Source of the DNA: an uncultured Bacteroidales bacterium
GTDB lineage: Bacteria; Bacteroidota; Bacteroidia; Bacteroidales; UBA10428
DNA length: 52,887 nt
Direction of reading: 5' to 3'
Assembly (NCBI GenBank): GCA_964569585.1
Contig: CAZMVE010000007.1
Coordinates: forward strand, 1 to 52,887
In this document: one piece after another, positions 8,536 to 52,887 of the stretch
Position numbering within the stretch: position 1 is the first letter of the stretch
Layout of the letters: every line of letters starts with the position of its first letter
Notes under the pieces: generated by a model
What the model saw: only the letters and a program-made list of their open reading frames with translations
The model's database searches: none
What the model was told of the DNA's origin: nothing
Translations under genes and position numbers: made by a program

Positions 8536-9370
8536 GGGGGGAACAGGCAAAACCAGTATAACGGCTGCTCTGGCTTCAGTAGCCGAACATGCTGTTCTGT
8601 GCGATAGTGATGTCGATGCAGCAGATTTGCATCTTCTGCTTCATCCACAAAAAAAAGAAGAATATACATTTTCAGGTGGATGGATTGTTCAAATTGATCA
8701 GGCAAAGTGTTCCTTGTGCAAAACCTGTCTGGAATTATGCAGGTATGGGGCCATACATTATAGCCGCGATGGGCAATTAGAAATTAATCCTTTTCAGTGC
8801 GAAGGTTGCAGGTTGTGTGAAAAGAAATGCCCTGCTAATGCCATTACATCGATCCGGAATAACAACAATTACTGGTATGTTTCCGAAACACGTTTTGGAA
8901 TTATGGTTCATGCCAAAATGAGTCCTGGAGAAGAGAATTCGGGGAAGCTGGTCTCGCGGATACGTATCAGAGCGAGAGAAATTGCCACGGATGACAATTT
9001 ACAATATATCATAAATGATGGTCCTCCGGGAATAGGTTGTACTGCCATTTCATCGCTAACAGGTTCCCATGCAGTTTTAATGGTAACTGAGCCAACAAAG
9101 TCAGGATTGCACGATTTGAAAAGACTGGTGGAACTGATTGCAGGCTTTTCCATTCCAGCTTATGCAGTAATTAATAAATATGATATTGACCTGGAATTAT
9201 CGTCAGAGATTGAGTCTTATTTAAAGGATAATACCATTCCATTATTGGAGAAGATTCCCTTTACACCGGATGTAATTAAAGCCATGATAGAAGGAAAAAC
9301 AATAACGGAATACAAACCTGATTCAGAAATAACTAAATGCATTAAAAAAATTTGGGAAATGATAAAGTAA
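8507..9370 (+). CDS. MinD/Mrp-type P-loop ATPase with 2x[4Fe-4S] ferredoxin insert (paralog)
   Basis: SGKGGTGKTS, plus CSLCKTCLELC and CEGCRLCEKKC, and NDGPPGIGC. It overlaps the previous paralog by 29 nt. Confidence 0.85.
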   Translation: MKEITILSGKGGTGKTSITAALASVAEHAVLCDSDVDAADLHLLLHPQKKEEYTFSGGWIVQIDQAKCSLCKTCLELCRYGAIHYSRDGQLEINPFQCEGCRLCEKKCPANAITSIRNNNNYWYVSETRFGIMVHAKMSPGEENSGKLVSRIRIRAREIATDDNLQYIINDGPPGIGCTAISSLTGSHAVLMVTEPTKSGLHDLKRLVELIAGFSIPAYAVINKYDIDLELSSEIESYLKDNTIPLLEKIPFTPDVIKAMIEGKTITEYKPDSEITKCIKKIWEMIK

Positions 9371-9377
9371 TTGGAAA

Positions 9378-9971
9378 ATGGTTTTACCAATTATTGCATA
9401 TGGTTTTAGTGTGTTACGAAAGAAGTGTAATACTATTTCTTCCGAATTAGGCGGATTTGATCCATTGATTCAGGATCTGTGGGAAACGCTTGAAATATCG
9501 GGTGGAGTTGGTCTTGCTGCGCCTCAGGTGAATTCCAATTGGAAAGCATTTGTTGTGAATAGCAAATTAATGTATGAGGGTATGAATGAAAGAGATAAAA
9601 AATCCTATTTTCCGGATGATGAAGGCATTATCGAAACATTTTGTAATGCTAAAATTATCGCTGAGTCTGAAATTACGTGGAGTGAATTTGAAAGTTGCCT
9701 GAGTATACCGGGAATAACGGAACAGGTTGAGCGTCCCTGGAAAATTACTGTTGAATATCAGAACAGAGATTTAAAACAACATAAGCGGCAATTCTCAGGA
9801 TATACGGCAAGGATTATTCAGCATGAATATGACCATACCCTTGGCGTGCTATTTATCGATCATTTATCGGCATTAAAGAAGCGCATGTTAAAATCGAAGC
9901 TGGATAAAATAGTAAAAGGTAAAACCAAAACCGATTATAAAATTACCTACTGGAAAAAATCGATGCATTAA
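9378..9971 (+). CDS. def: Peptide deformylase
   Basis: Motif 1 is GVGLAAPQV. Motif 2 is ESCLSIPG, with Ser in place of the usual Gly of EGCLS. Motif 3 is QHEYDHTLG. Confidence 0.9.
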   Translation: MVLPIIAYGFSVLRKKCNTISSELGGFDPLIQDLWETLEISGGVGLAAPQVNSNWKAFVVNSKLMYEGMNERDKKSYFPDDEGIIETFCNAKIIAESEITWSEFESCLSIPGITEQVERPWKITVEYQNRDLKQHKRQFSGYTARIIQHEYDHTLGVLFIDHLSALKKRMLKSKLDKIVKGKTKTDYKITYWKKSMH

Positions 9972-9977
9972 TCGAAT

Positions 9978-10976
9978 ATGGTGTATCTATTGAATACTAA
10001 ATTTATGAGTGTGGAAAGAAATGTATTTGAACCTGTTCCTTCCCGAAGACTTGGGAAAAGCCTGGGAGTAAATAATATACCTCATAAGGTTTGTACCTAC
10101 TCATGTTTGTATTGTCAGGTAGGTAAAGCTGATAAAATGCAGCTAAACAGACAGGTGTTTTACACACCGGAAAAACTGATCAAAGAAGTTGAAAAAACTT
10201 TACGGGCTATTTCTGATTCAGACGAATATTCTAATTATATTGCTATTGTTCCTGATGGTGAACCAACATTGGATATCAATTTGGGAATTCTGATCGAAAA
10301 ACTGAAAGCTACTAATATTCCGGTAGCAGTTATTACGAATGCATCTTTGCTATATTTATCCGATGTGCAGAATGATTTATCCAGAGCTGACTATGTATCC
10401 TTAAAAGTCGATACGGTTAATTCTTCCTGCTGGAAGAAAATGCATCATCCTGTTAAATCACTTGAATTATCAACCGTCCTATTGAGAATTGAACAGTTCG
10501 CTAGAAATTTTACCGGAAAACTTGTGACTGAAACTATGGTGGTGAAAAATTATAACGATTCTGACATAGAGTTGAATAACCTGTCATCCTTTATTCATAG
10601 CATCGAACCATCAGTTGCCTACCTGGTAATTCCAACACGGCCTCCGGCATATGAAGGTGTTCTACAACCCGATACTAAAACCATAACAAAGGCATACCAT
10701 ATTTTTTCTGATTCAGATACTCAGGTTGAACTTTTAACCGGATATGAAGGAAATGCTTTTTCTTCGACTGGCAAACCGAAAGAAGATATTTTTTCAATAA
10801 CTGCGATTCACCCAATGCAGGAGAAAGCGTTGGAAGAATTATTACATAAAACAGATACGGAATTTGCTGTTGTGGATGCTATGTTAAACAAGGGATTATT
10901 AAATAAAATCAATTATCTCGGTAATATTTACTATACAAGCAATTTTGATCAAAAACGACCGGCTCATGAAAACTAA
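9978..10976 (+). CDS. Radical SAM enzyme, substrate unknown
   Basis: CTYSCLYCQVG (CxxxCxxC) lies near the N-terminus after LGKSLGVNNIP, and is followed by VPDGEPTL. No extra Cys-rich (SPASM-like) C-terminus is visible. Confidence 0.8.
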   Translation: MVYLLNTKFMSVERNVFEPVPSRRLGKSLGVNNIPHKVCTYSCLYCQVGKADKMQLNRQVFYTPEKLIKEVEKTLRAISDSDEYSNYIAIVPDGEPTLDINLGILIEKLKATNIPVAVITNASLLYLSDVQNDLSRADYVSLKVDTVNSSCWKKMHHPVKSLELSTVLLRIEQFARNFTGKLVTETMVVKNYNDSDIELNNLSSFIHSIEPSVAYLVIPTRPPAYEGVLQPDTKTITKAYHIFSDSDTQVELLTGYEGNAFSSTGKPKEDIFSITAIHPMQEKALEELLHKTDTEFAVVDAMLNKGLLNKINYLGNIYYTSNFDQKRPAHEN

Positions 10977-12081
10977 TTGTTTGCTGTATTTTTCTTTTCT
11001 TGGTGTTTTTGTAGCAATAAACTTTTTGAATTGTAGTAACGATGATGGAGAAGTTATATCGGATCCGCCGATGATCAGTTATACACAGCAAGATGTAAGT
11101 ACATATGGAGGGAATGATGGGTCAATTGATATAACTGTTACAGGGGGTTTCTCTCCCTATGTATATCAATGGTCGAATGGTGCCGAAACAGAGGATATTT
11201 TTAATTTAACAGCCGGAACTTATACAGTTACGGTTATCGATGCTGCTGACCAATTGGCTACTGATAGTATTACCATCACAGAACCTCATCCTGATTCTGT
11301 TATTCTTCAGTTTACCATTATACATCCCTTAGCTGCAGGGGCTCACAACGGAGCTATTGACTTAACTGTTACCGGTGGTGTTCTCCCCTATACCTATATC
11401 TGGTCTAACGGATCAAGGGAAGAAGATATCACTGATCTTACGGCCGGTAAATATTCAGTTACAGTTACCGATCAGCTAAGTACCAATAAAACAGATTCTG
11501 TTCTACTTATCGATGAAATGTTGGAGGATATTGATGGCAATTTATATCCTGTTATTAAAATAGGAGATCAATACTGGATGCAGGAAAATCTGCGGGTTAC
11601 CCAGTCACCGGAAGGCACATCAATAACGAGTTATGCTTATAACAATGATCTTGAAAATGTTTCTACATACGGCAGGTTGTACGACTGGAATGCTGTAATG
11701 AATGGCTCAATAACGGAAAAAGCACAAGGAATTTGTCCTTGTGGCTGGCATATTCCCTCCGATTCCGAGTGGAAAACTCTTGAAATAAATCTTGGGATGA
11801 CTCCAGCTGAAGCTGATATGGAAAATACATGGAGAGGAAGTCTTGTAGGTACAAAACTAAAAGCAGGAGGGGAGTCAGGATATGAAGCCTTACTTTCAGG
11901 TCGCCGATCCGATGGTGGGTTTTACAGTCTGCTGGAACAATTTGAATACATGTGGACATCTACGGAATATGGATTGTATGCCTGGCGACGTTGCCTTGAT
12001 ATCAGTTCTGATGAAATTGGGAGGTGGAATACATTTCCTAAAACTTATGCTTTTTCAGTACGATGCATTAAAGATGAATAA
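10966..12081 (+). CDS. Lipoprotein with two SprB-type repeats and a C-terminal FISUMP (Fibrobacter succinogenes major paralogous) domain
   Basis: Signal and lipobox FLNCSND. GGNDGSIDITVTGGFSPYVYQWSNG and GAHNGAIDLTVTGGVLPYTYIWSNG are SprB repeats. IGDQYWMQENLRV...CPCGWHIPSDSEW is the FISUMP hallmark. The ATG at 10966 overlaps the radical SAM stop by 11 nt. Confidence 0.75.
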   Translation: MKTNCLLYFSFLGVFVAINFLNCSNDDGEVISDPPMISYTQQDVSTYGGNDGSIDITVTGGFSPYVYQWSNGAETEDIFNLTAGTYTVTVIDAADQLATDSITITEPHPDSVILQFTIIHPLAAGAHNGAIDLTVTGGVLPYTYIWSNGSREEDITDLTAGKYSVTVTDQLSTNKTDSVLLIDEMLEDIDGNLYPVIKIGDQYWMQENLRVTQSPEGTSITSYAYNNDLENVSTYGRLYDWNAVMNGSITEKAQGICPCGWHIPSDSEWKTLEINLGMTPAEADMENTWRGSLVGTKLKAGGESGYEALLSGRRSDGGFYSLLEQFEYMWTSTEYGLYAWRRCLDISSDEIGRWNTFPKTYAFSVRCIKDE

Positions 12082-12101
12082 AAAGGTAAAAAACGGAAGC
12101 T

Positions 12102-12449
12102 ATGAAGCCCAAGCTATTTACAATTATATTGATAATGATTTTCATTGCTTGTGAAAACAACAAGGAAAATTCATCTGAGGGAAATCCTGATCAGCTACTT
12201 AATTTTGAATCCCTGGTAGCTGAAGATGATTCACTAAATGCTGGTGAATCGACCCTTGTAAGGGCAAATGCCACTGGTTATCAATTGAGCTATAACTGGT
12301 CGGCCAGTGCCGGAGATTTGCTGGGAACAGGCAACGAGGTTATTTATGCTGCTTCTCCCTGTCATGCAGGTAATAATGAAATTACATGTACAGTAAGGGA
12401 TGGTCACGATCAATCACAAACTAAATCCATTATAATTGTTATACTCTAG
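12102..12449 (+). CDS. Small lipoprotein, hypothetical
   Basis: MKPKLFTIILIMIFIAC has a lipobox, followed by an Ig-like Ser/Thr-rich domain. Confidence 0.5.
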   Translation: MKPKLFTIILIMIFIACENNKENSSEGNPDQLLNFESLVAEDDSLNAGESTLVRANATGYQLSYNWSASAGDLLGTGNEVIYAASPCHAGNNEITCTVRDGHDQSQTKSIIIVIL

Positions 12450-13383
12450 GATAATAGTATGGGTGGCAGTAATACAAATAGGCTGCCAATGCAGATTACC
12501 GGCTCAATGTCTTTCATCGGTAAGTCCTGTAGGAGGAACTAGCAATCTGATGGTGCAGGAAAAAAATACCCTGCATGTTATTGGTTTTTACAAATTTAAC
12601 TATGGAAATCAATATTTTGAAAGAGACCATCATGCTGATTTCGACCTGATAAAAGCAGCGAATTACAACTATGTTGGAAGTATATTAGGCTATGGGATTA
12701 CTGAAAAAGTGACTCTTGAATCGGAATTCGGTTATTTTATTAATAAGACCCAGGTATATAATATAGAACCTTTATATACTCTAAGAGGATATGGTTTTTC
12801 AAATGCTATTGTATCATTAAAATCCGGACTTTATAGTAATCATTTCAAACGTGTTTATTTCACAGCAAGTTTAGGTGCTAAAATTCCTTTTTCAACAAGA
12901 CCTAAAGTAATTGACGGAGTTGAGCTTCCTATCGAATTACAGCCTACCATAGGGGCTTACGGAATGGTTATTCAATCATTTTTTGTTAAAGAAAATTCCG
13001 GAAAAGGATTACGGTATTTTGTAACCAACCGGGTCGAAGTCAATTTTCCTAATAAACAAGATTATCATCAGGGAACAGCAGTATTTACCTCTTTTTTTAT
13101 ATCGAAACATATTATGTCGCCAAAGATAAAAGGTGACTGGACAGTCATACTACAAGTAAGAAACGAATTCAGAGCACGCGATAAAAGGGGATGTTGTTTT
13201 CGTGAATCAACGGGAGGTACCCTATTTTATATTTCACCACAAATCAACTATAGCATTAAAGAAAAATGGAATATATCGACTCTTTTTGAAATACCCTGCT
13301 ATCAGTATTTCAACGGGACTCAGCTGGGAACCCGTTTTGGAATTACATGTAGTGTGTCAAGAATGATTAATCTGGTTAAATGA
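12436..13383 (+). CDS. Hypothetical protein, possibly an outer-membrane beta-barrel
   Basis: Long ORF with alternating aromatic/polar beta-strand-like segments. TTG start with a weak signal-like N-terminus, so the start is uncertain. Confidence 0.4.
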   Translation: MLYSRIIVWVAVIQIGCQCRLPAQCLSSVSPVGGTSNLMVQEKNTLHVIGFYKFNYGNQYFERDHHADFDLIKAANYNYVGSILGYGITEKVTLESEFGYFINKTQVYNIEPLYTLRGYGFSNAIVSLKSGLYSNHFKRVYFTASLGAKIPFSTRPKVIDGVELPIELQPTIGAYGMVIQSFFVKENSGKGLRYFVTNRVEVNFPNKQDYHQGTAVFTSFFISKHIMSPKIKGDWTVILQVRNEFRARDKRGCCFRESTGGTLFYISPQINYSIKEKWNISTLFEIPCYQYFNGTQLGTRFGITCSVSRMINLVK

Positions 13384-13494: not shown

Positions 13495-14391
13495 ATGCCG
13501 TCAACTGAGAACTTTCAACTACCCGATTACCAGTTAATTGATTGTGGAAATTTTGAGAAAATTGAACGTTTTGGACCCTATTACCTGATAAGGCCGGAGT
13601 CACAGGCTTTGTGGAACAAACGACTGGACGAAAAACAATGGAAAGAATTGGCTCATGCACATTTCCGGTGCGAACAGAAAAAGTCTTCGTATCGTTCAGC
13701 AGAACCTGGGAACGAAGGTTGGAGTTATACTAAAAAAATGCCGGACAGCTGGATTATTTCGTGTCCGTTGCCGCAGGGAAATTTTAAAATGAAATTATCC
13801 CTCTCCTCATTCGGGCATGTGGGTATTTTTCCTGAACAGGTTTCAAACTGGCTTTATATTTATGATTCAATAATAAAGAATAAGATAAAAAGTCCGCGCA
13901 TACTCAATGCCTTCGCCTATACGGGTGGAGCTTCATTAGCCGCAAGAATAGCAGGAGCCGAGGTTACTCACCTGGATGCTGTTAAACAATTGACTTCAAG
14001 AGGCAGGGAAAATATGCAACTCAATAAATTAGACGATATTCGCTGGATTGTTGACGATGCCTTGAAATTTCTAAAACGTGAAGTAAAACGAGGCAAGACT
14101 TATAATGGCATTATACTCGATCCTCCTGCTTATGGCAATGGTCCGAAAGGGGAGAGGTGGATACTGGATGAAGGAATAAACGAGCTTCTGACATTATGTT
14201 CAAAAATTATTGAACCTGTAGGTAGTTTCTTCGTTCTTAATCTTTACTCACAGGGGTATTCACCATTAATTGCCAGCAATCTGGTTGAATCGCACTTTAT
14301 GTTCAGGGATAAGGAGTTCGGAGAATTATATCTTTCGTCGGAATCGGATATCAATTTACCCCAGGGCGTATTTGTGCGCTTCAGAAATTGA
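13495..14391 (+). CDS. Class I SAM-dependent (rRNA-type) methyltransferase
   Basis: ILNAFAYTGGASLAAR (SAM motif I) and IILDPPAYG (motif IV). The ATG at 13495 is preferred over the TTG at 13438. Confidence 0.75.
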   Translation: MPSTENFQLPDYQLIDCGNFEKIERFGPYYLIRPESQALWNKRLDEKQWKELAHAHFRCEQKKSSYRSAEPGNEGWSYTKKMPDSWIISCPLPQGNFKMKLSLSSFGHVGIFPEQVSNWLYIYDSIIKNKIKSPRILNAFAYTGGASLAARIAGAEVTHLDAVKQLTSRGRENMQLNKLDDIRWIVDDALKFLKREVKRGKTYNGIILDPPAYGNGPKGERWILDEGINELLTLCSKIIEPVGSFFVLNLYSQGYSPLIASNLVESHFMFRDKEFGELYLSSESDINLPQGVFVRFRN

Positions 14392-42743: not shown

Positions 42744-45308
42744 CTACTCCTCTTTATTTTTAGCAGCTAGCTTCTGGTTACCCTTTTCTTTCTGGATTAC
42801 TTTAATAGTTATTTCTTCATTCTTTTTACTGAATCCAACCGAAATAGTATCTCCTTCTTTAATTTCCGATCGGATAAGTACTTCGGCCATAGGGTCCTCC
42901 AGGTATTTCTGGATGGCTCTCTTCAAAGGTCGGGCACCGAACTGAATGTCGTAACCCTTTTCGGCTATAAAACTTTTTGCTACCTCGGAAAGCTTAATTT
43001 TATATCCCAGCTTAATGATTCTATTATAGAGTCCGTCAAGCTCGATATCAATGATTTTAAAGATATCCTCTTTTGTAAGGGCATTAAACAATACCACATC
43101 GTCGATACGATTCAGAAACTCAGGGGCAAAAGCTTTTTTTAAGGCATTCTGTATTACACTCTTTGTGTAATCGCTCATCTGCGTCTTTTTTGCTGTCGTG
43201 TTAAATCCAACTCCCTGTCCAAAGTCCTTAATTTGCCGTGTACCAATGTTAGAAGTCATTATAACAATAGTGTTTCTGAAATCCACTCTTCTTCCCAGGC
43301 TGTCGGTAAGTTGCCCTTCATCTAGCACCTGCAATAAAATATGGAAGACATCGGGGTGGGCTTTTTCAATTTCATCGAGCAATACCACGCAATAGGGTTT
43401 GCGCCGCACTTTTTCGGTGAGTTGTCCGCCCTCTTCATATCCGACATAACCCGGAGGGGCTCCAACCAGACGTGAGACAGAGAATTTTTCCATGTACTCG
43501 CTCATATCGATACGAACCAGGTTGTCGGTACTTTCAAAAAGATAACTGGACAGCACTTTTGCCAGCTGAGTTTTACCAACACCTGTGGGACCAAGAAATA
43601 TAAAAGTTCCGATAGGCTTGTTAGGGTCCTTTAATCCGGCGCGGTTGCGCTGTATCGATTTGACAACTTTTGAAACCGCTTCAACCTGACCAATAACACT
43701 GGCGCTAAGTTCTTTGCCCATATTCAGTAAGCGGATACCTTCGGCCTGAGCGATTCTCTGAACAGGAATGCCCGTCATCATGGCAACCACCTCGGCTACC
43801 TTTTCCTCATCAACAATCTCACGATTACGTGCAAGCTCTTTTTCCCAGCGTATTTTTTCCTCTTCGAGTTGTTCGATATATTCTTTTTCCTTATCGCGGA
43901 AACTGGCAGCCTTTTCAAAATTCTGATTTTTTACTGCCGTGATTTTTTCCTTTTTTGTTTCTTCAACCTTTTGTTCAAGGTCCAGAATGATATCAGGCAC
44001 AATAATATTGGAAATATGAACGCGTGAACCCGATTCGTCAAGTGCATCGATGGCTTTATCAGGCAGGTGCCTGTCGGTAATATACCTGTTGGTAAGGTGT
44101 ACGCAGGCAGTTATTGCTTCGGGAGTATAAATTACGTTATGATGATCTTCGTAACGTTCCTTGATATTATTGAGAATCTCCTGGGTTTCTTCTTCGCTGG
44201 TGGGTTCCACCATCACTTTTTGAAATCTTCGTTCCAGGGCTCCGTCTTTCTCGATATGTTGCCGGTATTCATCCAGTGTTGTGGCTCCAACACATTGAAT
44301 ATCGCCGCGGGCAAGGGCGGGTTTCAGCATGTTGGCGGCATCGAGCGATCCGGTTGCTCCTCCGGCTCCAACAATGGTATGAATTTCATCGATAAACAGG
44401 ATAACATCGGCAGTTTTCTGCAATTCGTTCAGTATGGCTTTCATACGTTCTTCAAACTGTCCGCGGTATTTGGTTCCTGCAACAATCGAAGCCAGGTCGA
44501 GTGTGACCACACGCTTGCCGAATAATACACGGCTCACTTTGCGTTTCATTATCCGTAGGGCAAGTCCTTCGACTATTGCCGATTTGCCAACACCGGGTTC
44601 ACCAATAAGAATGGGATTGTTTTTCTTGCGGCGGCTGAGAATTTGTGCCAGACGTTCAATTTCTTTTTCACGACCAACTATAGGATCGAGCCGGTCCTCT
44701 TCAGCTGCTTTGGTAAGATCGATTCCAAAATTGTCCAGTACGGGAGTTTCAGAGCCCGATTTGGAACCCGATTCGGGACTGCCACCACTTTTTTGAGGTC
44801 CGAATGTGCTTCCCGGTTCATCTTCATCGCTGGGGAATTCAGCCTTTGGATCGGAGTGTTCGACCGAGTCGGAGTTTTCTTTCTCGAGTTCCCTCCGGAC
44901 ACTTTCATAATCAATTTCATGCGTTCCCAGTACTTTCCGTACATTGCCGGTTTCTTCCTTTAAGATAGCCAGCAGGAGATGACCTGTATCTATAGTTGAT
45001 TTTTTTAGCGATTTAGCTTCGAGATATACCAGCTTAAGTATGCGTTCCGAAGATTTAAGAAGCGGGATATTATCGGCGCGTGTAACCTTTATAGGCCCGG
45101 AGGGATTCAATGATCCTTCCACTTCTTTTCTTAGCTCATAGAGATTGGCTCCCAGAGTTACAAGCACATCGATGGCAATGCCTTCTCCTTCCCGTAAAAT
45201 TCCGAGGAAAAGATGTTCGGGTGCAATCTCTGTATTACCAAGCCTTATAGCTTCTTCTTTACTATATGATAGTACATCCTTTATCCGTTGTGAAAACTTA
45301 GCATCCAT
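42744..45308 (-). CDS. clpC: Clp/Hsp100 AAA+ chaperone, ClpC type
   Basis: N-terminal Clp repeats, two Walker A motifs (GEPGVGKS and GPTGVGKT) and the UVR-like linker FEKAASFRDKEKE typical of ClpC rather than ClpB. Confidence 0.9.
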   Translation of the reverse strand: MDAKFSQRIKDVLSYSKEEAIRLGNTEIAPEHLFLGILREGEGIAIDVLVTLGANLYELRKEVEGSLNPSGPIKVTRADNIPLLKSSERILKLVYLEAKSLKKSTIDTGHLLLAILKEETGNVRKVLGTHEIDYESVRRELEKENSDSVEHSDPKAEFPSDEDEPGSTFGPQKSGGSPESGSKSGSETPVLDNFGIDLTKAAEEDRLDPIVGREKEIERLAQILSRRKKNNPILIGEPGVGKSAIVEGLALRIMKRKVSRVLFGKRVVTLDLASIVAGTKYRGQFEERMKAILNELQKTADVILFIDEIHTIVGAGGATGSLDAANMLKPALARGDIQCVGATTLDEYRQHIEKDGALERRFQKVMVEPTSEEETQEILNNIKERYEDHHNVIYTPEAITACVHLTNRYITDRHLPDKAIDALDESGSRVHISNIIVPDIILDLEQKVEETKKEKITAVKNQNFEKAASFRDKEKEYIEQLEEEKIRWEKELARNREIVDEEKVAEVVAMMTGIPVQRIAQAEGIRLLNMGKELSASVIGQVEAVSKVVKSIQRNRAGLKDPNKPIGTFIFLGPTGVGKTQLAKVLSSYLFESTDNLVRIDMSEYMEKFSVSRLVGAPPGYVGYEEGGQLTEKVRRKPYCVVLLDEIEKAHPDVFHILLQVLDEGQLTDSLGRRVDFRNTIVIMTSNIGTRQIKDFGQGVGFNTTAKKTQMSDYTKSVIQNALKKAFAPEFLNRIDDVVLFNALTKEDIFKIIDIELDGLYNRIIKLGYKIKLSEVAKSFIAEKGYDIQFGARPLKRAIQKYLEDPMAEVLIRSEIKEGDTISVGFSKKNEEITIKVIQKEKGNQKLAAKNKEE

Positions 45309-45520
45309 ACCTATGATATTTTCCTTTCAGTTATTAGAATTTGCAGCGCTTGGAGTACGACAAATATAGTAATAATTAACAAGGTATTATAAACAGGTTT
45401 TGTTGATAATTACACTCATTTTTTTTGACGTTTTCCCGCCATAAATATCTACTTTAGCATGCTTATTTTCTAATAAATTTAATAATATTTTTCCACAATA
45501 TAAATATATAATATCATTCA

Positions 45521-48037
45521 ATGGCTGAAGGAGAAAGGATTTTAAAAATCAATATCGAGGAAGAAATGAAATCAGCCTACATCGACTATTCGATGTCGGT
45601 TATAGTTTCGAGGGCATTGCCTGATGTGAGAGATGGCTTAAAACCGGTTCATCGAAGGGTTCTGTATGGTATGTCCGAATTGGGAGTTATGTCGAATCGT
45701 CCCTTTAAAAAATCGGCAAGAATAGTAGGAGAGGTGCTGGGTAAATATCATCCGCATGGCGATAGCTCGGTGTATGATGCTATGGTACGCATGGCACAGA
45801 ACTGGTCCTTGCGTTATCCGCTGGTAGACGGACAGGGTAATTTTGGTTCTATGGACGGCGATAGTCCCGCCGCTATGCGGTACACAGAAGCCCGGCTGCA
45901 GAAAATTGCTGAGGAAACACTTGCCGATATTGACAAAAACACAGTTGATTTTCAGCTCAATTTCGACGATACACTGGAAGAGCCTTCTGTATTGCCTACA
46001 CGAATTCCAAATTTGCTGGTAAACGGCGCATCGGGAATTGCAGTGGGCATGGCCACCAATATGGCTCCTCATAATCTGCGGGAAGTATGCGATGCCATTA
46101 TTTCTTATATCGATAACCATGAGGTTACCATAGAGGATCTCATGCTACATATAAAAGCCCCCGATTTTCCTACAGGCGGTATCATTTATGGATTTACAGG
46201 TGTTAAGGAAGCTTATGAAACGGGAAGGGGCAGGATTGTCATCAGGGCAAAGACCGAGATAGAAATAACATCGTCGGGCCGTGAATGCATCGTAATCACA
46301 GAAATTCCTTATCAGGTGAACAAAGCGGAAATGATCCGCAAGATTGCCGAAATGATTAACGAGAAAAGACTGGAAGGAATTTCTTATATCAACGATGAGT
46401 CGGACCGCAATGGTTTGCGGGTTGTGATAATACTTAAAAAAGAGGCACAATCGGGGGTTGTATTAAACAAATTGTTCAAACTTTCGCAGTTACAGACCAG
46501 CTTTAACGTTAATAATATTGCACTGGTTAAAGGACGCCCCCGCATGCTCAATTTATTGCAGCTTGTCAGGTATTTTGTAGAACATCGGCACGAAGTGGTG
46601 ATAAGGCGTACCGAGTATGACCTGGATCAGTCGGAAAAGAAAGCGCATATACTGGAAGGTTTGATTATTGCCGTAGATAATATCGATGCTGTTATTAAAC
46701 TGATACGTTCCTCCAAGACACCCGATGAAGCCCGCGACGGTCTGATGGCGAATTTTCAGCTTTCAGAGCTTCAGGCAAAGGCTATTTTGGAAATGCGACT
46801 TCAACGGCTTACCGGTCTGGAAATCGAGAAGCTGAAGATCGAGTACAGTGAATTGATGAAACATATTGCCTGGCTGAAGGAAATACTGGATAGCGAGGAA
46901 ATCCGGATGAAGATCATTAAGGATGAGTTAATTGAAGTTAAGGAAAAATTTGGTGACGAAAGACGCACCGAGATTGTTCCCAACGCTGAAGAATTCAATC
47001 CTGAAGATTTCTATGCCGATGATGATATGCTTATCACAATTTCCCACCTGGGTTATATGAAGCGCACACCTCTCAGTGATTTCCGTATACAAAACAGGGG
47101 TGGTATTGGCAGCCGCGGAAGCGATACACGCGACGAGGATTTCCTCGAGCATATGTTTCATGCTACCATGCATAATACCATGCTGTTTTTTACTGAAAAT
47201 GGTAAGTGCTTCTGGCTCAAGGTATATGCTATACCTGAAGGAACCCGTACTTCAAAGGGAAGGGCCATTCAGAATCTCATTCACATTGAGAGCGAAGATA
47301 AAGTTAAAGCTTTCATTAACGTTAAGAATTTCTCTGATACTGAGTATCTTAAAGATAAATATATTGTTATGGCCACGAAGTTCGGGGTCATTAAAAAAAC
47401 GGCCCTGGAAGCCTACAGCAGGCCCCGGCAAAATGGGATCATTGCCATAGGAGTGAGGGATGGCGATAGTCTGATCCAGGCCCGACTTACAACTGGTAAT
47501 ATGCATCTGATTTTGGCTCTGAGGTCGGGAAAGGCTATACGCTTCCCTGAAAGTACCGTTCGTAATATGGGACGCACTGCTACCGGTGTGCGTGGAATCA
47601 GACTAAAGGATGCGAAAGATGCAGTGATTGGAATGGTCATTGCTGATTCGGATAATGAAGATACTACTTTACTGGTAGTCTCTGAAAAGGGCTTCGGAAA
47701 ACGTACCTATCTGGAGGATTACCGCATTACAAACCGCGGGGGCAAGGGAGTTAAAACTATTAATATTACCGAAAAAACAGGTGCTTTGATCAGTATTAAA
47801 TCAGTATCGGACCAGGATGACCTGATGATCATCAACCGCTCGGGAATTACCATACGACTTGCAGTACAGAGCGTACGAATAGCCGGCAGGGCCACACAGG
47901 GTGTGAAATTAATCAACCTGCGTGAGAACGATACGATTGCTGCAGTAGCAAGTGTTCTGAAAAATGATGAAGATGAGGAGGAGGATATACAGGGAATAGA
48001 AGCTATACCTCCCGATACCCCGGAGAATAATGACTAA
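45521..48037 (+). CDS. gyrA: DNA gyrase subunit A
   Basis: [21 protein letters not shown], active-site [10 protein letters not shown], a GyrA-box-like RGGIGSRG, a C-terminal beta-pinwheel repeat region and an acidic tail. Confidence 0.95.
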
Positions 48038-48159
48038 GCATAGTATAATATTATGGAATAACCACGTTATACTATTTATAATAATGGATTTATTAAATTT
48101 GCCCTGCTGCTGGGTGCGGCAGTCTATTAAATTTACTGTTAAATGAATTCTAAAACACT

Positions 48160-49503
48160 ATGAAAATGAATAGATTATTGTTTTTTCTTACACTTATTTT
48201 TTTAATCCCTGCCCAGGGGATTGATGCACAAGCCGATATGGCAACAGGTACACCTGAATCTAACTTTTCGATTTATAAAAACAAGCTCAAGAAGAGCGAA
48301 GAAGGTCTGGCTGATGAGAAAAAGTCGTCCAGTGCCAAATTCTGGATTTCGCGTGCCGAACTGATGATGGATATATTTAATCTGCATCGTCAGTTTCTTC
48401 AGCCGGGTACACAGCAGATCCACGTAAATCTTATTTATCCTAATCCGGATGATAAAAAGACCTGGCAGGATGATGAAGGCAATCAATTTGAGGAACTGAT
48501 CTACGACAAGCTGAAGATTAAATTGAAAAACGGTGTAGTTGAAAATTTCGAAGAGCTGGAAGTATTATATGATAATCCACTTCACGAAGCTTTACGATCG
48601 CTTGAAATGGCCCAGAAAATTGATACTATTGGCAAATTAAGTAAGAAGATCAAGGAGGACTACACCAAGCTTACGCTGCATTTTGAAAGACTGGGAATTG
48701 AAGAATACTACCTGCCTGATTTCGCCGCATCTCATAAGTCATTTTCATCTATCGGGATTATCAACGAAAAGCCAGTGATGGAAGGTATTGTGGACACTAC
48801 ATTGCTTTTTTATGCAGGAATGGCAGCCTACCGGGCCGAAATGAACAACGAAGCTATTGAATATTTTGAAAAGGCCGCCAAATACAACTATCCTGAGCCG
48901 GAATTGTATATATACCTGAAAATTAAATACCTGGAGGTTGGAGATACTGCAAGTGGAATCAGAGCCCTTGAGAGAGGTTTTAAGTTGTTTCCCTCGAATC
49001 AGATGGTGCTTCGGGAGCTTATTAACTATTATCTTTTATCGGGCATGGCGGAAGAAGCCATGGAGTACCTGAAACTGGCACAAGAAGAAGATCCTAAAAA
49101 TTTGTCCTATATATCGGCTGAAGGATCGCTGTACGATAAAATGGGAGACCAGGAGAAGGCACTGACAACCTATCAGAAGTGTATTGATATGGATACGACC
49201 TTTTTCGATGCCTATTATAATATAGGGGTGATTTATTACAACCGTGCTTACCAGATGTATAAGGACGCCGAGAGTATACGTATAGCCAGGGATTATGGTG
49301 TTGCTGTCGATGCAGCCGATGTAGTGCTGGCAAAATCACTGCCTTATATGGAAAAGGCACATCAGATCGATCCCAAGGAAAGGCAGACCATTGAAACCCT
49401 TAAAACTTTGTATTATCGTATGCAGATGAATGATAAGTACGAAGAAATGAAAGCGAAACTGGAAGCATTGCCGCCACCAACCGAAGCGGGCGGGGTTAAA
49501 TAA
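48160..49503 (+). CDS. TPR-repeat protein with signal peptide
   Basis: Signal MKMNRLLFFLTLIFLIPAQGIDAQ. TPR-like units include AIEYFEKAAKYN, AMEYLKLAQEEDP and ALTTYQKCIDMD. Confidence 0.7.
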   Translation: MKMNRLLFFLTLIFLIPAQGIDAQADMATGTPESNFSIYKNKLKKSEEGLADEKKSSSAKFWISRAELMMDIFNLHRQFLQPGTQQIHVNLIYPNPDDKKTWQDDEGNQFEELIYDKLKIKLKNGVVENFEELEVLYDNPLHEALRSLEMAQKIDTIGKLSKKIKEDYTKLTLHFERLGIEEYYLPDFAASHKSFSSIGIINEKPVMEGIVDTTLLFYAGMAAYRAEMNNEAIEYFEKAAKYNYPEPELYIYLKIKYLEVGDTASGIRALERGFKLFPSNQMVLRELINYYLLSGMAEEAMEYLKLAQEEDPKNLSYISAEGSLYDKMGDQEKALTTYQKCIDMDTTFFDAYYNIGVIYYNRAYQMYKDAESIRIARDYGVAVDAADVVLAKSLPYMEKAHQIDPKERQTIETLKTLYYRMQMNDKYEEMKAKLEALPPPTEAGGVK

Positions 49504-49527
49504 AGGAATTTTAAAAAACACAAATAG

Positions 49528-49554
49528 GAAGGGAGATTATAAACGTCTCCTTTC
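49528..49554 (+). terminator. Probable terminator of the TPR gene
   Basis: GAAGGGAGA (49528-49536) pairs with TCTCCTTTC (49546-49554), a 9-bp stem with one G-U pair and a 9-nt loop, followed by a T-rich tail. Confidence 0.5.
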
Positions 49555-49559
49555 TCTTA

Positions 49560-50591
49560 ACATTTTCAATTTAACATAATATTAATTATACGACAACCGC
49601 AGAGAAATTGCGTTTCCCGTTTTATGAGGAAACTTTCGTATAGCTTTGCTATTTAACATAGAATCAGTACTAAGACTTCAGTTTTAGTACGGTAATGATT
49701 TTATGTTAAAGAAAGTTTCCACAGCTGTTAGTTTGATAATGGCAGTATTACCCAAGCTGTTTTTCATATGTTAAAGCAATTTCTCGGTGTTATTTGCATA
49801 CTGCCCTATAATATATCCGTAAAATTGATTTCTCGTCCCAGAAGCAATTTCTCCTCAGCGCTCAGAAAAAACCCAAGTGGTCAAGTATAATGGATATTAT
49901 ATTAAATAGAGCTTCACGTAGCCAGGATTAAACGCTCGTTTAAAACCATACAATCTCATTGAAAACCTCATAAAACGCCGTAGCGTTAATCATTTGTCGC
50001 ATAATTAGCACTATATTAAGTAGCCGCACGGCCTGCTCCAAAGCGCAAAAAATAAAATTTGTGAAGAATGTACAAATTTTATTTGTTTATCACTTCCACA
50101 GCCTCAACGCCGGCCGCACAGCTATAAGACAATAATGCCCACCGCGCTGTTTAAGTTCTATATAGCTTAAACGCTTATAAATGAGATATTTGACCTCTTA
50201 ACCGCAAGAGTATACGCATATTCGCTCCTTACCTCGCTCAGTTTGCTATACACATGCTATCATTCCGGTATTCCCCTACCGTATTGAGAAACACCAATTT
50301 CTATTTAACATAATAATATTATAATGGATTATACTTTTCCTTCAAATTCTTTCATGCCCTCGTGCCGGGCGGCATTTCTTTTGTCTTGAAACAAAAGAAA
50401 CGAAAATTCAAGAAGAAATAATGCTTCAGCCCGCCCTGTGCAATAGCAACAAAAATCGCACAACGAAAATGCGAGGCACCTTGTGGATTTTTCTAGCCAT
50501 TGCCCATTCCCGCTGGCTCTGGCCCGCTATTTCTTCTGGCCTGCGCACTGGAACCAAATTCAGCATTAATATCTATTTCACAGCTATAATA
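49560..50591. other. ORF-free, repeat- and hairpin-rich region of unknown nature (ncRNA, element remnant or recombination sites)
   Basis: It occupies most of the 1,088-bp gap between the convergent stops at 49503 and 50592. The only track ORF here (50421-50675, +) looks like a chance ORF and runs into the antisense of the 140-aa gene. Multiple exact short repeats and stems were read directly; see findings. Confidence 0.4.
49628..49720. repeat. 93-nt imperfect inverted repeat (bulged hairpin)
   Basis: GGAAACTTTC (49628-49637) pairs with GAAAGTTTCC (49711-49720). TTTAACATA (49652-49660) pairs with TATGTTAAA (49702-49710). AATCA pairs with TGATT. GTACTAA (49667-49673) pairs with TTAGTAC (49684-49690). 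Confidence 0.7.
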
Positions 50592-51014
50592 TTAAGGGAC
50601 ATTAACGGACCCCCCAGGTACAGTACCGGTGCTAGGTACATTTTTATTATGCCTGGATTTGATAATTCTACCTGAAGATAAACGTACCCTACCTTTGTTA
50701 TATGGATTTCTTTTTATACTAACCGGTAGATCTTCAAATTTATACCATATCTCCCAAGTTTCATCTGCTTTTAATCTTCTAGGTAATGGTCTATCATTAT
50801 GGATTACACCTATTTGCCCTGTATGCTTTCTAAAATAGACATGGGTTACTTCAATCTCTCTTTCATTCGAAAGATTTGTAACATTAAGAAATAGATATTT
50901 GTCTTTTATTCCTGAAAAAAAGCCACTATGAACTGTAAAACGAATTTTTCTTCTGTTCTCAATATATTTCCAAAAAAAGCCTATTAGCGAATTTAAAATA
51001 TCAGTAGGATTCAT
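50592..51014 (-). CDS. Hypothetical 140-aa protein, third gene of the OLD-nuclease operon
   Basis: ATG start 39 nt after the upstream stop. It has a hydrophobic N-terminus ILNSLIGFFWKYI and a beta-strand-rich body. I recognise no family motif. Confidence 0.6.
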   Translation of the reverse strand: MNPTDILNSLIGFFWKYIENRRKIRFTVHSGFFSGIKDKYLFLNVTNLSNEREIEVTHVYFRKHTGQIGVIHNDRPLPRRLKADETWEIWYKFEDLPVSIKRNPYNKGRVRLSSGRIIKSRHNKNVPSTGTVPGGSVNVP

Positions 51015-51053
51015 CTTTTTCGATTTTGTTTATAGATAAATGTTTATTTAGAA

Positions 51054-51464
51054 TTAATCGCTTTTCTGATCTTTCTTGTTTTCTTCTTGTTCATTTTTGA
51101 TAATATCGTATAGAGGATTTGCTGTTATTGGTTTTGAGTTTTCAGATATGGATTTCTTGTTTGAAATCTTTCCAGCATCTTTATTCAATGATTCAACAAT
51201 AGTACTATCTTCATATATTAAGCTTATAACTAGATATTTAGATCTTGTTTTGAAAGAGAAAAATTGTGGATGTTGATCAGGTTTGTGAGCAGTTTGACCA
51301 GCAATATTCTCAATATCACTATCCACAACGGTAGTGATTGAATGATTCACATAGGTATAATTTTCGTTCTTCAGAAATTTTGAAATCTCAGATACAGCAG
51401 AATTATTTTGATTTATTCTACCTGATTCTCCTATTTTAATTAAAAACAATTTATGCTTGATCAT
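51054..51464 (-). CDS. Hypothetical 136-aa protein, second gene of the OLD-nuclease operon
   Basis: ATG start 7 nt after the OLD-like stop. The C-terminal third is acidic and Lys-rich. I recognise no family motif. Confidence 0.6.
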   Translation of the reverse strand: MIKHKLFLIKIGESGRINQNNSAVSEISKFLKNENYTYVNHSITTVVDSDIENIAGQTAHKPDQHPQFFSFKTRSKYLVISLIYEDSTIVESLNKDAGKISNKKSISENSKPITANPLYDIIKNEQEENKKDQKSD

Positions 51465-51471
51465 GTCTAAT

Positions 51472-52887
51472 TCAATTGAGTAGTTTATTAGTTTTATTGC
51501 TAATTAGATTGAAAAGTTTTTCTACATATTTTAGTGCTTCCCTCCTGTCCTTTTCATTTAGACCAAAAATATCATCAAGAAGATATCTCATAATACCAAC
51601 CTTATTTATTGTTTCTTTCCTATTCTTAGGCTCTTCACCAGAGTATAAATGTTTCAAGTAATGTTCTCTCAGTAAATCAACAATTGGAGTTTTAATCTCC
51701 TTTACACTCTCTAGTTTAATATCCTTAAATGAAGTCTTAAAGTCAATAACAGATGACATTTCATGATAAAACTTATTATATGCATTAATATATAGCTGTT
51801 GGGGAAAAAGATCCTCAAATACTCTATTTGCATTGTTATTAAAAGCGTCATTAATTGTTACTTCTTCCCAATTACTGGTATTGAGAATTTCTGAAACCTT
51901 CTCGTTTTTTCGAATAACTCTTGAAATATCATCCGAATCAAAAAGCACAATTCCTTTTAGATTTAAAGAATTAATATATCGTATCGCGGATTTAATTTCT
52001 GTTGTTCCTTCAGCACTAAATATGTTCATCCATTCAAGGAATGGAAACTTGTTTTTTTCGAGAGAGAAATAATTAAACAACCTTGGTAAGGCATACTTCT
52101 CAGTTGATCCATCTACAATGATATTTATATCACCAACAAGAAATGAATCATTTAAAAAAACCCCAAGTTCCTTTCGAAGAACTTCAAAGTTATTTCTATA
52201 AACCTTATTTTGAATATACGTACCTAAATTGGAATTATCCTTTCTAATATAAAGTATACTGTCAATATCATCTCTTATGACTAAGAAAAGATTGTGGGTG
52301 GTATATAGAATTTGACTGCTACTATTTGTTATGGAACGAAAAGTTTTTAATAGATCCCGTGCTCCTTTTGGATGTAGATTCGAGCCTGGTTCATCAAGTA
52401 AAAAGATTTGATTCCTATTGTTTTTTCTGGTGAGAAAGTGTTTATTTACGATAAAGGCAAAGAAATATTGAAATCCGGGGCTTCTTTCACTTAGTTCAAA
52501 AAATTCATCATCTCGTCCAGGGATTTTCTCTTGAACAAGAATACTCACTTTATTATCGTTATAGGATATTTTGAAGGATAGATTGGAATCTTGTAAATAA
52601 TATTTTTTAAATAATTGACTAATTTGTAATGAATATTTCTCTGTAGCTTGGAATACTTTTTTAGATTTAAAAATATCATAATCCGTGCATTTGGCCAAAG
52701 TCAATAATCGACGCATTGATTCATGGTCTTTCTTACTACCCTTTAAATCATCAATTGTTGCAGGCTCGAGGCTTAATTCATCATTTGAGTAAAACTCAAT
52801 TTCTGGAAGCAGTCTATTTGATACATCCTGTAATAATTTATTATACTGCCTTTTATCTTTCAATTGTTCCTTAAGTTTTACTGCATT
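51472..52887 (-). CDS. OLD-family nuclease (ABC-type ATPase + TOPRIM), N-terminally truncated by the window edge
   Basis: ABC-signature-like LSERSPGFQ, Walker B IFLLDEP (52387-52407) and H-loop YTTH. The TOPRIM segment has IIVDGSTEKY (52093-52122) and VLFDSDD (51928-51948). The frame stays open from the TTG at 52863 to base 52887 (NAVKLKEQ), and no Walker A is visible, so the 5' end lies outside the window. Confidence 0.75.
   Translation of the reverse strand, partial: NAVKLKEQLKDKRQYNKLLQDVSNRLLPEIEFYSNDELSLEPATIDDLKGSKKDHESMRRLLTLAKCTDYDIFKSKKVFQATEKYSLQISQLFKKYYLQDSNLSFKISYNDNKVSILVQEKIPGRDDEFFELSERSPGFQYFFAFIVNKHFLTRKNNRNQIFLLDEPGSNLHPKGARDLLKTFRSITNSSSQILYTTHNLFLVIRDDIDSILYIRKDNSNLGTYIQNKVYRNNFEVLRKELGVFLNDSFLVGDINIIVDGSTEKYALPRLFNYFSLEKNKFPFLEWMNIFSAEGTTEIKSAIRYINSLNLKGIVLFDSDDISRVIRKNEKVSEILNTSNWEEVTINDAFNNNANRVFEDLFPQQLYINAYNKFYHEMSSVIDFKTSFKDIKLESVKEIKTPIVDLLREHYLKHLYSGEEPKNRKETINKVGIMRYLLDDIFGLNEKDRREALKYVEKLFNLISNKTNKLLN

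Follow-up and report, generated by a model that had tools for sequence, protein, structure and literature searches.

A predicted chromosomal dif site and the probable non-coding end of a Xer-using island next to an OLD-family operon in an uncultured Bacteroidales bacterium

A stretch of 52,887 nucleotides from an uncultured Bacteroidales bacterium (GCA_964569585.1, contig CAZMVE010000007.1; here called the window) contains, close to its right end, a gap of 1,088 bp between two convergent genes. These are a gene for a TPR lipoprotein-like protein (48160-49503, plus strand, stop codon TAA) and an open reading frame (ORF) of 140 aa (50592-51014, minus strand). A 28-bp site in this gap, S1, is assigned with high confidence as the predicted chromosomal dif site. 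The gap as a whole is best explained as the dif locus followed by the left, non-coding end of a small island, which would use Xer recombination without having a recombinase of its own and would carry an OLD-family operon as cargo (rough probability 0.7). Judged from related loci, the sequence to the right of S1, up to the OLD operon, is probably the left end of this island. An earlier note on the same DNA overlooked this central feature, the dif site at 49569-49596 together with the dif-like sites that divide the gap into modules.

The predicted chromosomal dif site

XerC and XerD, together with FtsK, resolve chromosome dimers at dif. S1 has an 11-6-11 layout, with two 11-bp arms that form an imperfect inverted repeat around a 6-bp centre; the inner ATAA/TTAT is palindromic. 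The XerD arm faces the TPR gene and is identical in 11 of 11 positions to the arm of the Escherichia coli dif site (GGTGCGCATAATGTATATTATGTTAAAT). The complete E. coli site is GGTGCGCATAA-TGTATA-TTATGTTAAAT (PMC2731167). S1 is identical in 26 of 28 positions to the dif site predicted for Robiginitalea biformata (TTGTCCTATAATTTATATTATGTTAAAT), and the variant found in two related loci (L002 and L005; loci from relatives carry L numbers) in 27 of 28. The R. biformata prediction, which is located at the skew switch, is taken from the supplement of Kono et al. 2011 (PMC3025954), and S1 is also close to the sites predicted there for Dyadobacter, Gramella and Pedobacter.

S1 is the only perfect copy of the 28-mer in the window. 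A 14-nt motif, TATTTAACATAATA, which contains the reverse complement of the XerD-binding arm of dif (TTATGTTAAAT), has five matches in the window when up to two mismatches are allowed, and every one of them is inside the gap.

Related loci were obtained in three ways: eight loci from Bacteroidales metagenome-assembled genomes (MAGs) via the TPR protein, five metagenome loci via an invariant 29-mer from the gap, and 15 more via exact look-ups of TPR homologues. Of the 21 loci whose sequence continues beyond the TPR gene, 20 have the 28-mer with no or one mismatch, and the TPR proteins of these 20 are 47-93% identical. The exception is L008 (TPR 43% identical), which has four mismatches, all in the XerC arm. 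The equivalent of S1 is mostly within about 100 bp of the TPR stop codon, and its XerD arm faces the TPR terminator where the two adjoin. In most loci, AAAGAAAGGAGA (as read on the minus strand, the 3' half of the TPR terminator-like hairpin) is kept beside the XerD arm. One or two genes are located between the TPR gene and dif in L016, L017 and L021. S1 is intergenic, between convergent genes, at a position that is kept across relatives.

GC skew was compared locally around the site in 14 loci. On the left side, bulk skew has a positive sign in 13 of these loci; on the right side, it is negative in all 14. For minus-strand genes to the left of dif, the third-position skew of the plus strand is mostly positive (for the weight of this evidence, see below). 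On the basis of sequence and conservation, the predicted role of S1 is in chromosome dimer resolution by XerC/XerD.

The gene order clpB (minus strand), gyrA (plus strand), TPR lipoprotein-like gene (plus strand) and dif is kept across Bacteroidales MAGs with TPR proteins that are 43-93% identical. In the window, the three genes cover positions 42744-49503.

A modular array of dif-like sites to the right of dif

The part of the gap to the right of S1 is an array of dif-like sites and non-coding modules (Table 1). By BLASTN, most of the gap has 72-92% nucleotide identity in relatives, the stretch of about 49720-49880 less so. The TPR proteins of the same relatives are only 47-58% identical (their genes 64-71% in DNA), so that chance is excluded as the reason for conservation of the gap. 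The extreme case is L029, with 47% identity for the TPR protein and nucleotide identities of 78% for A-core and 87-92% for B.

The modules occur independently of each other, which does not support a single large RNA gene. L014 and L022 contain B with little or no A-core (about 30 nt of it in L014). A-core is joined straight to B, without S5, in L009, L010 and L013. Unrelated genes are located between the modules in L002, L005 and L022, and extra copies of individual blocks are found within one locus in L005, L013, L028 and L029. The array is absent from L008, L020 and L024, and L021 has only the palindrome (pal). L029 has three more copies of the pal core (13032-13109, 13776-13841 and 13953-14014), which are 4.6-5.6 kb to the right of dif, beside a ParE-toxin pair. 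These suggest a longer tandem array of islets.

The imperfect palindrome pal contains two dif-like sites, S2 and S3. Its DNA fold has a z score of -7.24, matched by none of 200 shuffles, and is equally good on both strands, which is the signature of a DNA palindrome and not of a one-strand RNA. When folded as RNA, the same region (49587-49800) has a z score of about -6 on both strands. Segments of the pal arms differ between 13 copies yet stay complementary (AAATCG/CGATTT, AATTTA/TAAATT, AATTCC/GGAATT, AAACTTT/AAAGTTT, AATTTG/CAAATT). S2 and S3 are an inverted pair at the centre of pal, 5 nt apart in the window; most relatives have a short central hairpin between the inner arms. The XerD arms of both sites match in 10 of 11 positions, and the XerC arm of S2 matches in 8 of 11 in relatives (TTGTCTTAGTA).

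Three further dif-like sites follow. S4 has 10 of 11 positions of S1 in its XerD arm and 7 of 11 in its XerC arm, and it is kept in L001, L002, L004, L005, L009, L010, L016 and L028. S6 is identical to S1 in 22 of 28 positions (XerC arm: 10 of 11) and is near-invariant in at least 10 copies. S5 has equivalents in 11 relatives, all with a perfect XerD arm and with variable sequence on the XerC side. Cargo genes, which differ between loci, are inserted immediately to the right of S5 in L002, L005 and L022. In L009 and L013, an intact S5-like site is located to the right of B. S1 and S5 are on the minus strand and S4 and S6 on the plus strand, so the latter two are in direct orientation.

In L005, the array is followed 7 kb further to the right by another, rearranged one that lacks the 86-bp segment M2 between S4 and S6. 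Its first site is a hybrid, TTCAACTATAA-TTT/GCA-TTATGTTAAGT. The left flank, the XerC arm and the first three central bases match S4 of L005, while the last three central bases, the XerD arm and the right flank match S6 of L005 (42/54). Such a hybrid would be expected if two sites in direct orientation had crossed over inside their central regions.

Homologs of the array contain, at various positions, a small repeated insert that consists of '...TTTTAAAGGTGTTCGYGA' and a short hairpin rich in GC; in some cases it takes the place of the S6 XerC arm. The insert looks like a separate miniature module, either mobile or recombining.

Table 1. Location of the features discussed in the text. Positions are those of the window unless a locus number is given.
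Feature	Location	Strand	Description
TPR terminator-like hairpin	49528..49554	+	2 mismatches in 10 in the stem, followed by a T-rich run
S1, chromosomal dif (predicted, high confidence)	49569..49596	-	TTGTCGTATAA (XerC arm, 49596-49586)-TTAATA (central, 49585-49580)-TTATGTTAAAT (XerD arm, 49579-49569)
pal	49587..49800		214-bp imperfect palindrome; holds S2 and S3; inverted repeats I3, I4, I12
S2	49651..49678	-	form in relatives: TTGTCTTAGTA-CTGATT-TTATGTTAAyC
S3	49684..49711	+	TTAGTACGGTA-ATGATT-TTATGTTAAAG
Half-site in pal	49766..49776		dif-like half
S4, dif-like	49880..49907	+	GTCAAGTATAA-TGGATA-TTATATTAAAT; inverted relative to S1
M2	49908..49993		86-bp segment between the direct sites S4 and S6; hairpins 49928-49943, 49974-49987
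S6, dif-like	49994..50021	+	TTGTCGCATAA-TTAGCA-CTATATTAAGT
A-core, conserved non-coding module	50022..50302	-	between inward-pointing XerD arms; invariant core 50093-50121; A/T-rich hairpin 50047-50087
S5, dif-like	50303..50330	-	perfect XerD arm TTATGTTAAAT, central ATATTA, XerC side AATCCATTATA without recognisable arm
B, conserved non-coding module	50355..50553	-	stems 50362-50375, 50375-50400
Degenerate copy of the S5 segment	50568..50600		AATATCTATTTCACAGCTATAATATTA versus AATTTCTATTTAACATAATAATATTA at 50296; direct repeats D2, D12
Cargo of the window	50592..52887	-	ORFs of 140 and 136 aa; OLD/GajA-like ATPase-TOPRIM gene (51472-52887), 5' end cut by the window end
Island in L014	L014: 7421-11608		between dif and far-end site
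Island in L005	L005: 6481-13274		between dif and far-end site
Island in L002	L002: 11438-16846		between dif and far-end site
Island in L029	L029: about 8424-12995		between dif and far-end site
Island in L021	L021: about 7121-11440		between dif and far-end site
TTTTAAAGGTGTTCGYGA insert	L002: 11950-12005; L004: 5480-5560; L009: about 500-560 and about 790-880; L012: 2640-2672; L013: 3225-3250; L022: 7740-7760		repeated insert

Probable defence islands at dif in related loci

In L002, L005, L014 and L029, dif and a second, directly oriented site flank an island. The same holds for L021, where the second site is degenerate, its XerD arm being broken by a hairpin insertion. L010, L012 and L013 show the right junction only. 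The far-end site reads (A/C)TTTAACATAA-TGCAnnnnCA-TTATA(C/G)GACAA in L002, L005, L010, L012, L013, L014 and L029, with both arms intact and a spacer of 10 nt (11 nt in L013). Its XerD side is always formed by the conserved end '...CCAAAGC(A/T)' and its XerC side by a homolog of the left arm of pal.

The islands between dif and the far-end site have a length of 4-7 kb. Their order in relatives is: XerC arm, pal, S4, S6, A-core, S5, B, minus-strand defence genes, '...CCAAAGCW', XerD arm with the 10-nt spacer (TGCAnnnnCA), and the next XerC arm. In the left ends, S4, M2, S6 and A-core are optional; they follow pal and precede S5 and B. Presence and content of the island vary among related loci. 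L005 carries AbiV, a set of genes for a cyclic oligonucleotide-based anti-phage signalling system (CBASS; cyclase, E2 and SMODS-associated NUDIX) and an AAA_21/RloB pair. HNH_2 nucleases are found in L014, L021 and L028, an FRG-domain PDC-S15 protein with an HTH protein in L013, and a ParE toxin with a metallo-beta-lactamase-fold protein in L029. No Phage_integrase or resolvase domain was found in the island genes of L002, L005, L014, L021 and L029 or in the three cargo ORFs of the window.

The OLD-like gene of the window has the domains PF13304 (AAA_21) and PF20469 (OLD-like TOPRIM) and matches Old (1.3e-18) and GajA (2.9e-14) in PADLOC. Because the AAA_21 match begins at profile position 134, the N-terminus is missing, and the TTG codon given as the start in the ORF list (52863) is an artefact. 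The ORFs of 140 and 136 aa match no Pfam or PADLOC family.

Proposed mechanism and points against it

We propose that an island site with a non-homologous 10-nt spacer would recombine with dif by XerC-side exchange only. The intermediate would then be resolved by replication, as described for CTXphi (PMC3442271). The TPR side would be left with the chromosomal XerD arm, the chromosomal centre and the XerC arm of the island, which is an intact dif. The far end would be left with the XerD arm of the island, the 10-nt spacer and the old XerC arm. These inferred products match the observed arrangement exactly. Successive insertions would produce arrays that are nested or in tandem, of the kind seen in L005, L014 and L029. 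S4, S6 and S5 may be secondary crossover points or scars that would let modules or cargo be deleted, duplicated or swapped. For the genome under study, a junction of the form ...CCAAAGCW-ATTTAACATAA-TGCAnnnnCA-TTATAsGACAA is predicted a few kb beyond position 52887.

A more far-reaching version of this proposal is that uncultured Bacteroidales possess an undescribed type of recombinase-less dif 'defence islets' of 4-7 kb. These would attach via a 10-nt-spacer site and have a conserved non-coding backbone of about 1 kb with a foldable, CTXphi-like palindrome and secondary Xer sites for cargo swapping. A-core and B would be new RNAs or single-stranded DNA origins for transfer or maintenance. We put this forward tentatively, its chances being somewhat below even.

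Several observations weigh against the island explanation. The window ends inside the cargo, short of the right-hand junction, so that the island status of the window itself had to be inferred. S5 lacks a recognisable XerC arm, and Xer catalysis at S5 and at the 10-nt-spacer sites is putative; a 10-nt spacer is, to our knowledge, not a known XerCD substrate. The mixed orientation of the sites is not predicted by simple tandem integration. A sensitive blastn search of the gap against plasmid and phage collections found no copies, the A-core pattern is absent from viral contigs, and no free or circular form is documented. A model purely of DNA sites does not explain why A-core and B fold on one strand and have invariant stretches. 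Finally, third-position skew to the right of dif is mixed, probably because the DNA there was recently acquired, and gene orientation confounds the local sign change in bulk skew. The evidence from skew thus lends support but does not decide the matter.

A-core, B and the case for a non-coding RNA

An unlikely alternative is that A-core and B, jointly or singly, are new structured non-coding RNA genes on the minus strand or the 3' untranslated region of the cargo operon. The dif-like motifs would then be incidental, or they would mark the RNA gene as an integration target. This alternative overlaps with the island explanation in that a module bounded by Xer sites could have an RNA as its payload.

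Nucleotide identity in relatives is 74-90% for A-core and 74-92% for B (13 copies). The consensus of both folds much better on the minus strand. For A-core (14 sequences), 33 pairs with -17.5 kcal/mol are obtained on the minus strand and six pairs with -2.5 kcal/mol on the plus strand; for B (11 of the 13 aligned copies), the values are -30.8 versus -18.0 kcal/mol. Part of this asymmetry is due to base composition, as the G-rich strand always folds better. The plus-strand GC skew drops to between -0.2 and -0.29 across 49800-50700. Across 50000-50400, the skew in this range is stronger than in the flanking genes, which would suit a folded minus-strand molecule. Single-sequence z scores are weaker than for pal, with -2.4 (minus) and -1.4 (plus) for A-core and -2.1 (minus) and -2.8 (plus) for B.

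In the minus-strand fold of A-core, 95% of cells are paired, compared to 43-51% (about 45%) when the partners are slid. For covariation, a score of 0.244 was obtained versus 0.161 in shuffles, none of 500 being as good. Alternations between G-C and G-U are frequent, such as at pairs 263/301 (GU 8, GC 6) and 307/356 (CG 7, UG 5), and the A/T hairpin shows compensatory changes, as does one pair of the long helix (AU 9, UA 4). Insertions in the shape of a hairpin are located at loop positions in L013 and L016. Most predicted pairs are, however, invariant, and only seven of the 33 were changed on both sides, a number that was reached by 77 of 500 shuffles.

B is located directly downstream of the cargo in the window and in L002, L005, L014 and L022. 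Its final 60 nt or so are copied, partly or as a whole, so as to flank the cargo in L004, L029, L013 and L028, as is known for integration targets of the tRNA type. These copies hint at yet another insertion point.

The search for known RNAs and for promoters was negative. No Rfam 15 family matched at its gathering score in the whole window, and in the gap, even with E values up to 10, the matches were at chance level (best E = 1.6-4.8, 28-82 bits below threshold). ARAGORN found no tRNA or tmRNA. There is no good site for the Bacteroidetes promoter motif TTG...TAnnTTTG in the gap, and sigma-70 promoters are not enriched (five found, 5.5 expected). The modules are separable, as shown by the genes between them in L002, L005 and L022 and by the 30-nt remainder of A-core in L014. 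The Rfam result, the lack of the Bacteroidetes motif and this separability argue against one large structured non-coding RNA, which was the first of three candidates in the earlier note. The third, an RNA or DNA component specific to the OLD system, does not agree with the finding that the same modules adjoin CBASS, AbiV, HNH and FRG/PDC-S15 cargo elsewhere. Of the three, the second fits best, in which the OLD operon belongs to an integrated element and the gap is the decayed end of this element: the same array is the left end of dif-integrated defence islands in relatives.

Our best guess under the island explanation is that A-core and B are backbone modules that may act as folded single strands. 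It is tempting to speculate that they are a structured 3' part of the cargo transcript (terminator or stabiliser) or have a single-stranded DNA function (single-strand or transfer origin).

Other explanations

Another possibility is that the array is a resident, non-mobile part of the terminus (terminus-organiser sites, or Xer accessory sequences of the cer/psi kind) and that islands insert beside it. The plasmid Xer sites cer and psi have accessory sequences of about 200 bp on the XerC side, and in the window, L001, L004, L028 and L029 the array comes immediately after dif. In L010, L012 and L013, it comes after the far-end site with the 10-nt spacer, as the chromosome side of an insertion would. 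A resident sequence is not expected to be as patchy as is seen in L008, L020 and L024 (array absent) and in L021 (pal only), to have second copies within one locus (L005, L013, L028, L029) or to have a nucleotide identity far above that of neighbouring genes across distant genomes. We consider this explanation to be distinctly improbable.

An ordinary spacer between convergent genes, with two terminators, AT-rich filler and chance stems, has next to no probability. It would account for the gene orientation, for the terminator-like hairpins (six found, 1.2 expected) and for the segment 49880-50021, which folds like shuffled sequence (z about 0). It is already refuted by conservation of the gap across distant Bacteroidales, at 72-92% identity where the TPR proteins have 47-58%. 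In addition, the 28-bp dif is near-invariant, the palindrome has z = -7.2, and the XerD-arm motif is found five times in the gap and nowhere else in the 52.9 kb. The view of the earlier note that this is not a plain terminator spacer is thus confirmed.

A frameshifted remnant of a protein-coding gene, named in the earlier note as a possible refutation, can practically be dismissed even though short ORFs cover conserved blocks (51 aa and 87 aa in L004, 84 aa in the window): all six frames have stop codons, the frame of homologous ORFs differs from locus to locus, most indels in A-core and B are not multiples of 3, three-base periodicity is absent over variable columns (p = 0.89, 0.95 and 0.99, with 0.89 for A-core and 0.95 for B, versus 2e-45 for the TPR control), and the peptides of 51 aa (A-core) and 87 aa (B) match only themselves among 5.8 billion proteins.

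Three further candidates were rejected. An oriC with DnaA boxes or iterons does not apply, since what is repeated is the XerD arm of dif, and the local change in skew is terminus-like, not origin-like. The succession of left block, variable ORF and right block in L002 and L005 suggested an intron of group I or II into which an ORF was inserted. There is no match to an Rfam intron, and the inserts, AbiV and an unknown protein of 181 aa, are unrelated defence genes. Integron-like cassettes, considered for the repeated B, lack an IntI gene and a regular attC array.

Composition and stems of the gap

The ORF ends at 49503 and 50592 bear out the description of the gap as an ORF-free region of 1,088 bp between convergent genes in the earlier note. 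Six-frame translation gives stop codons in all frames, and the ORF list contains no ORF of at least 60 aa that is wholly within the gap. The sole large ORF is the one already noted at 50421-50675 (plus strand, 84 aa), which indeed extends into the antisense of the 140-aa gene. G+C content is 37.3% (window mean 38.1%) with a patchy distribution, and a recount agrees with the reported 32 G+C in the 60 nt at 50101-50160.

The stems described earlier were reproduced nearly throughout. Pairing is perfect for 50050-50062 with 50072-50084 (13 bp), 50375-50384 with 50391-50400 (10 bp), 49928-49933 with 49938-49943 and 49741-49748 with 49798-49805. A hairpin given as 49973-49987 exists, with coordinates that were one base off (49974-49987). 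The terminator-like hairpin of the TPR gene is also present, albeit with the two mismatches listed in Table 1.

Other elements at the dif locus

Phage-like genes (GTA_holin_3TM, BNR_4, glucosaminidase) are located to the right of dif in L024 (9092-13347), where pal, A-core and B are lacking. Larger prophage-like elements may use the same dif site. L025, an IMG/VR contig (IMGVR_UViG_3300040801_006091), has the dif-like 28-mer at 9578-9605, where the XerC arm reads TTGTCTTATAA. This is about 650 bp beyond a block of genes for a contractile tail (sheath, tube, tape measure and baseplate). The contig represents either a prophage or tailocin that abuts dif or a provirus call that overruns the terminus.

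The genes between the TPR gene and dif are at 7418-8473 in L016 and 4022-5077 in L017 (88 and 206 aa) and at 6219-6812 in L021 (outer membrane protein beta-barrel). The XerD-side flank of dif in L016 contains a CCAAAGC-like island end, which hints at an insertion on the XerD side as well. Genes beside the array in two metagenome contigs (L009: 1115-2229; L010: 1614-2945) are, judging from their translations, presumably transposases of the IS3 family (OrfA/OrfB-like) and of the IS5/IS1182-like type. Insertion sequences thus also accumulate at this locus.

Significance

The dif site, integrative mobile elements exploiting Xer (IMEX) and dif-associated Bacteroidales proviruses are already known. 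What is new is that the cargo is for defence, that the junction has a 10-nt spacer, that a conserved backbone free of genes contains a foldable dif-like palindrome, and that two modules are structured on one strand only. The dif site of an uncultured Bacteroidales lineage is placed at a fixed landmark, past the gyrA-TPR pair, which is handy for fragmented assemblies. The results suggest that the host Xer machinery parks or exchanges anti-phage systems (OLD/Gabija-like, CBASS, AbiV, HNH, PDC-S15) at the replication terminus on tiny elements. If this is true, dif joins the hotspots for defence islands, and there is a simple sequence rule for finding islets. For mobile elements with few genes, the palindrome, the 10-nt-spacer site and the two one-strand modules are candidates for cis-acting functions. 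Should A-core or B turn out to be an RNA, a new RNA class tied to mobile defence cargo would be at hand.

Comparison with known systems

With chromosomal dif sites, S1 shares the 28-bp 11-6-11 layout, the XerD arm of E. coli, the intergenic setting between convergent genes, the single copy in the window and the kept position. It differs in no tested feature.

The attC sites of integrons and the single-strand origins of rolling-circle elements are linked to tyrosine recombinases or single-stranded DNA intermediates. A-core and B are likewise non-coding and one-stranded, with a fold that is kept more than the sequence, which we treat as a resemblance only. The islands have no integron integrase, attC cassette array or Rep gene.

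The pdif modules of Acinetobacter are found on Rep_3 plasmids and chromosomes (PMC13141974, PMC12907356, PMC5790767). In both systems, short modules are bounded by XerC/D-like sites and are reshuffled between contexts, and the mixed orientation of the sites is likewise reminiscent of Acinetobacter. A-core, located between inward XerD arms, resembles a 'D module', and the segment from S1 to S4, between XerC arms, a 'C module'. Unlike the Acinetobacter modules, the array is located at the chromosomal dif of Bacteroidales and not on plasmids, and several of its modules are wholly non-coding. As S4 and S6 are direct instead of alternating and S5 is devoid of a XerC arm, the array is not a member of the Acinetobacter scheme.

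Known IMEX are CTXphi, RS1 and TLCphi of Vibrio cholerae, the gonococcal genetic island and the microvirus proviruses BMV1-7 of Bacteroidales. The islands differ from these by the absence of phage, replication and regulatory genes, their cargo being anti-phage defence, by the 10-nt spacer at the far end, by about 1 kb of conserved non-coding backbone and in that no free form is known. In common with IMEX, they are located at dif, have no recombinase of their own, have an intact dif on one side and a non-canonical site on the other, and form tandem or nested arrays. The Bacteroidales microvirus proviruses have no integrase and are flanked by dif-like sites, and BMV4-6 have extra dif-like sites near one provirus end (PMC3091885). 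This resembles the extra dif-like sites that the array has near one end. Finally, the inverted pair S2/S3 is predicted from its sequence to be able to anneal into one stem, like the single-stranded attP of CTXphi.

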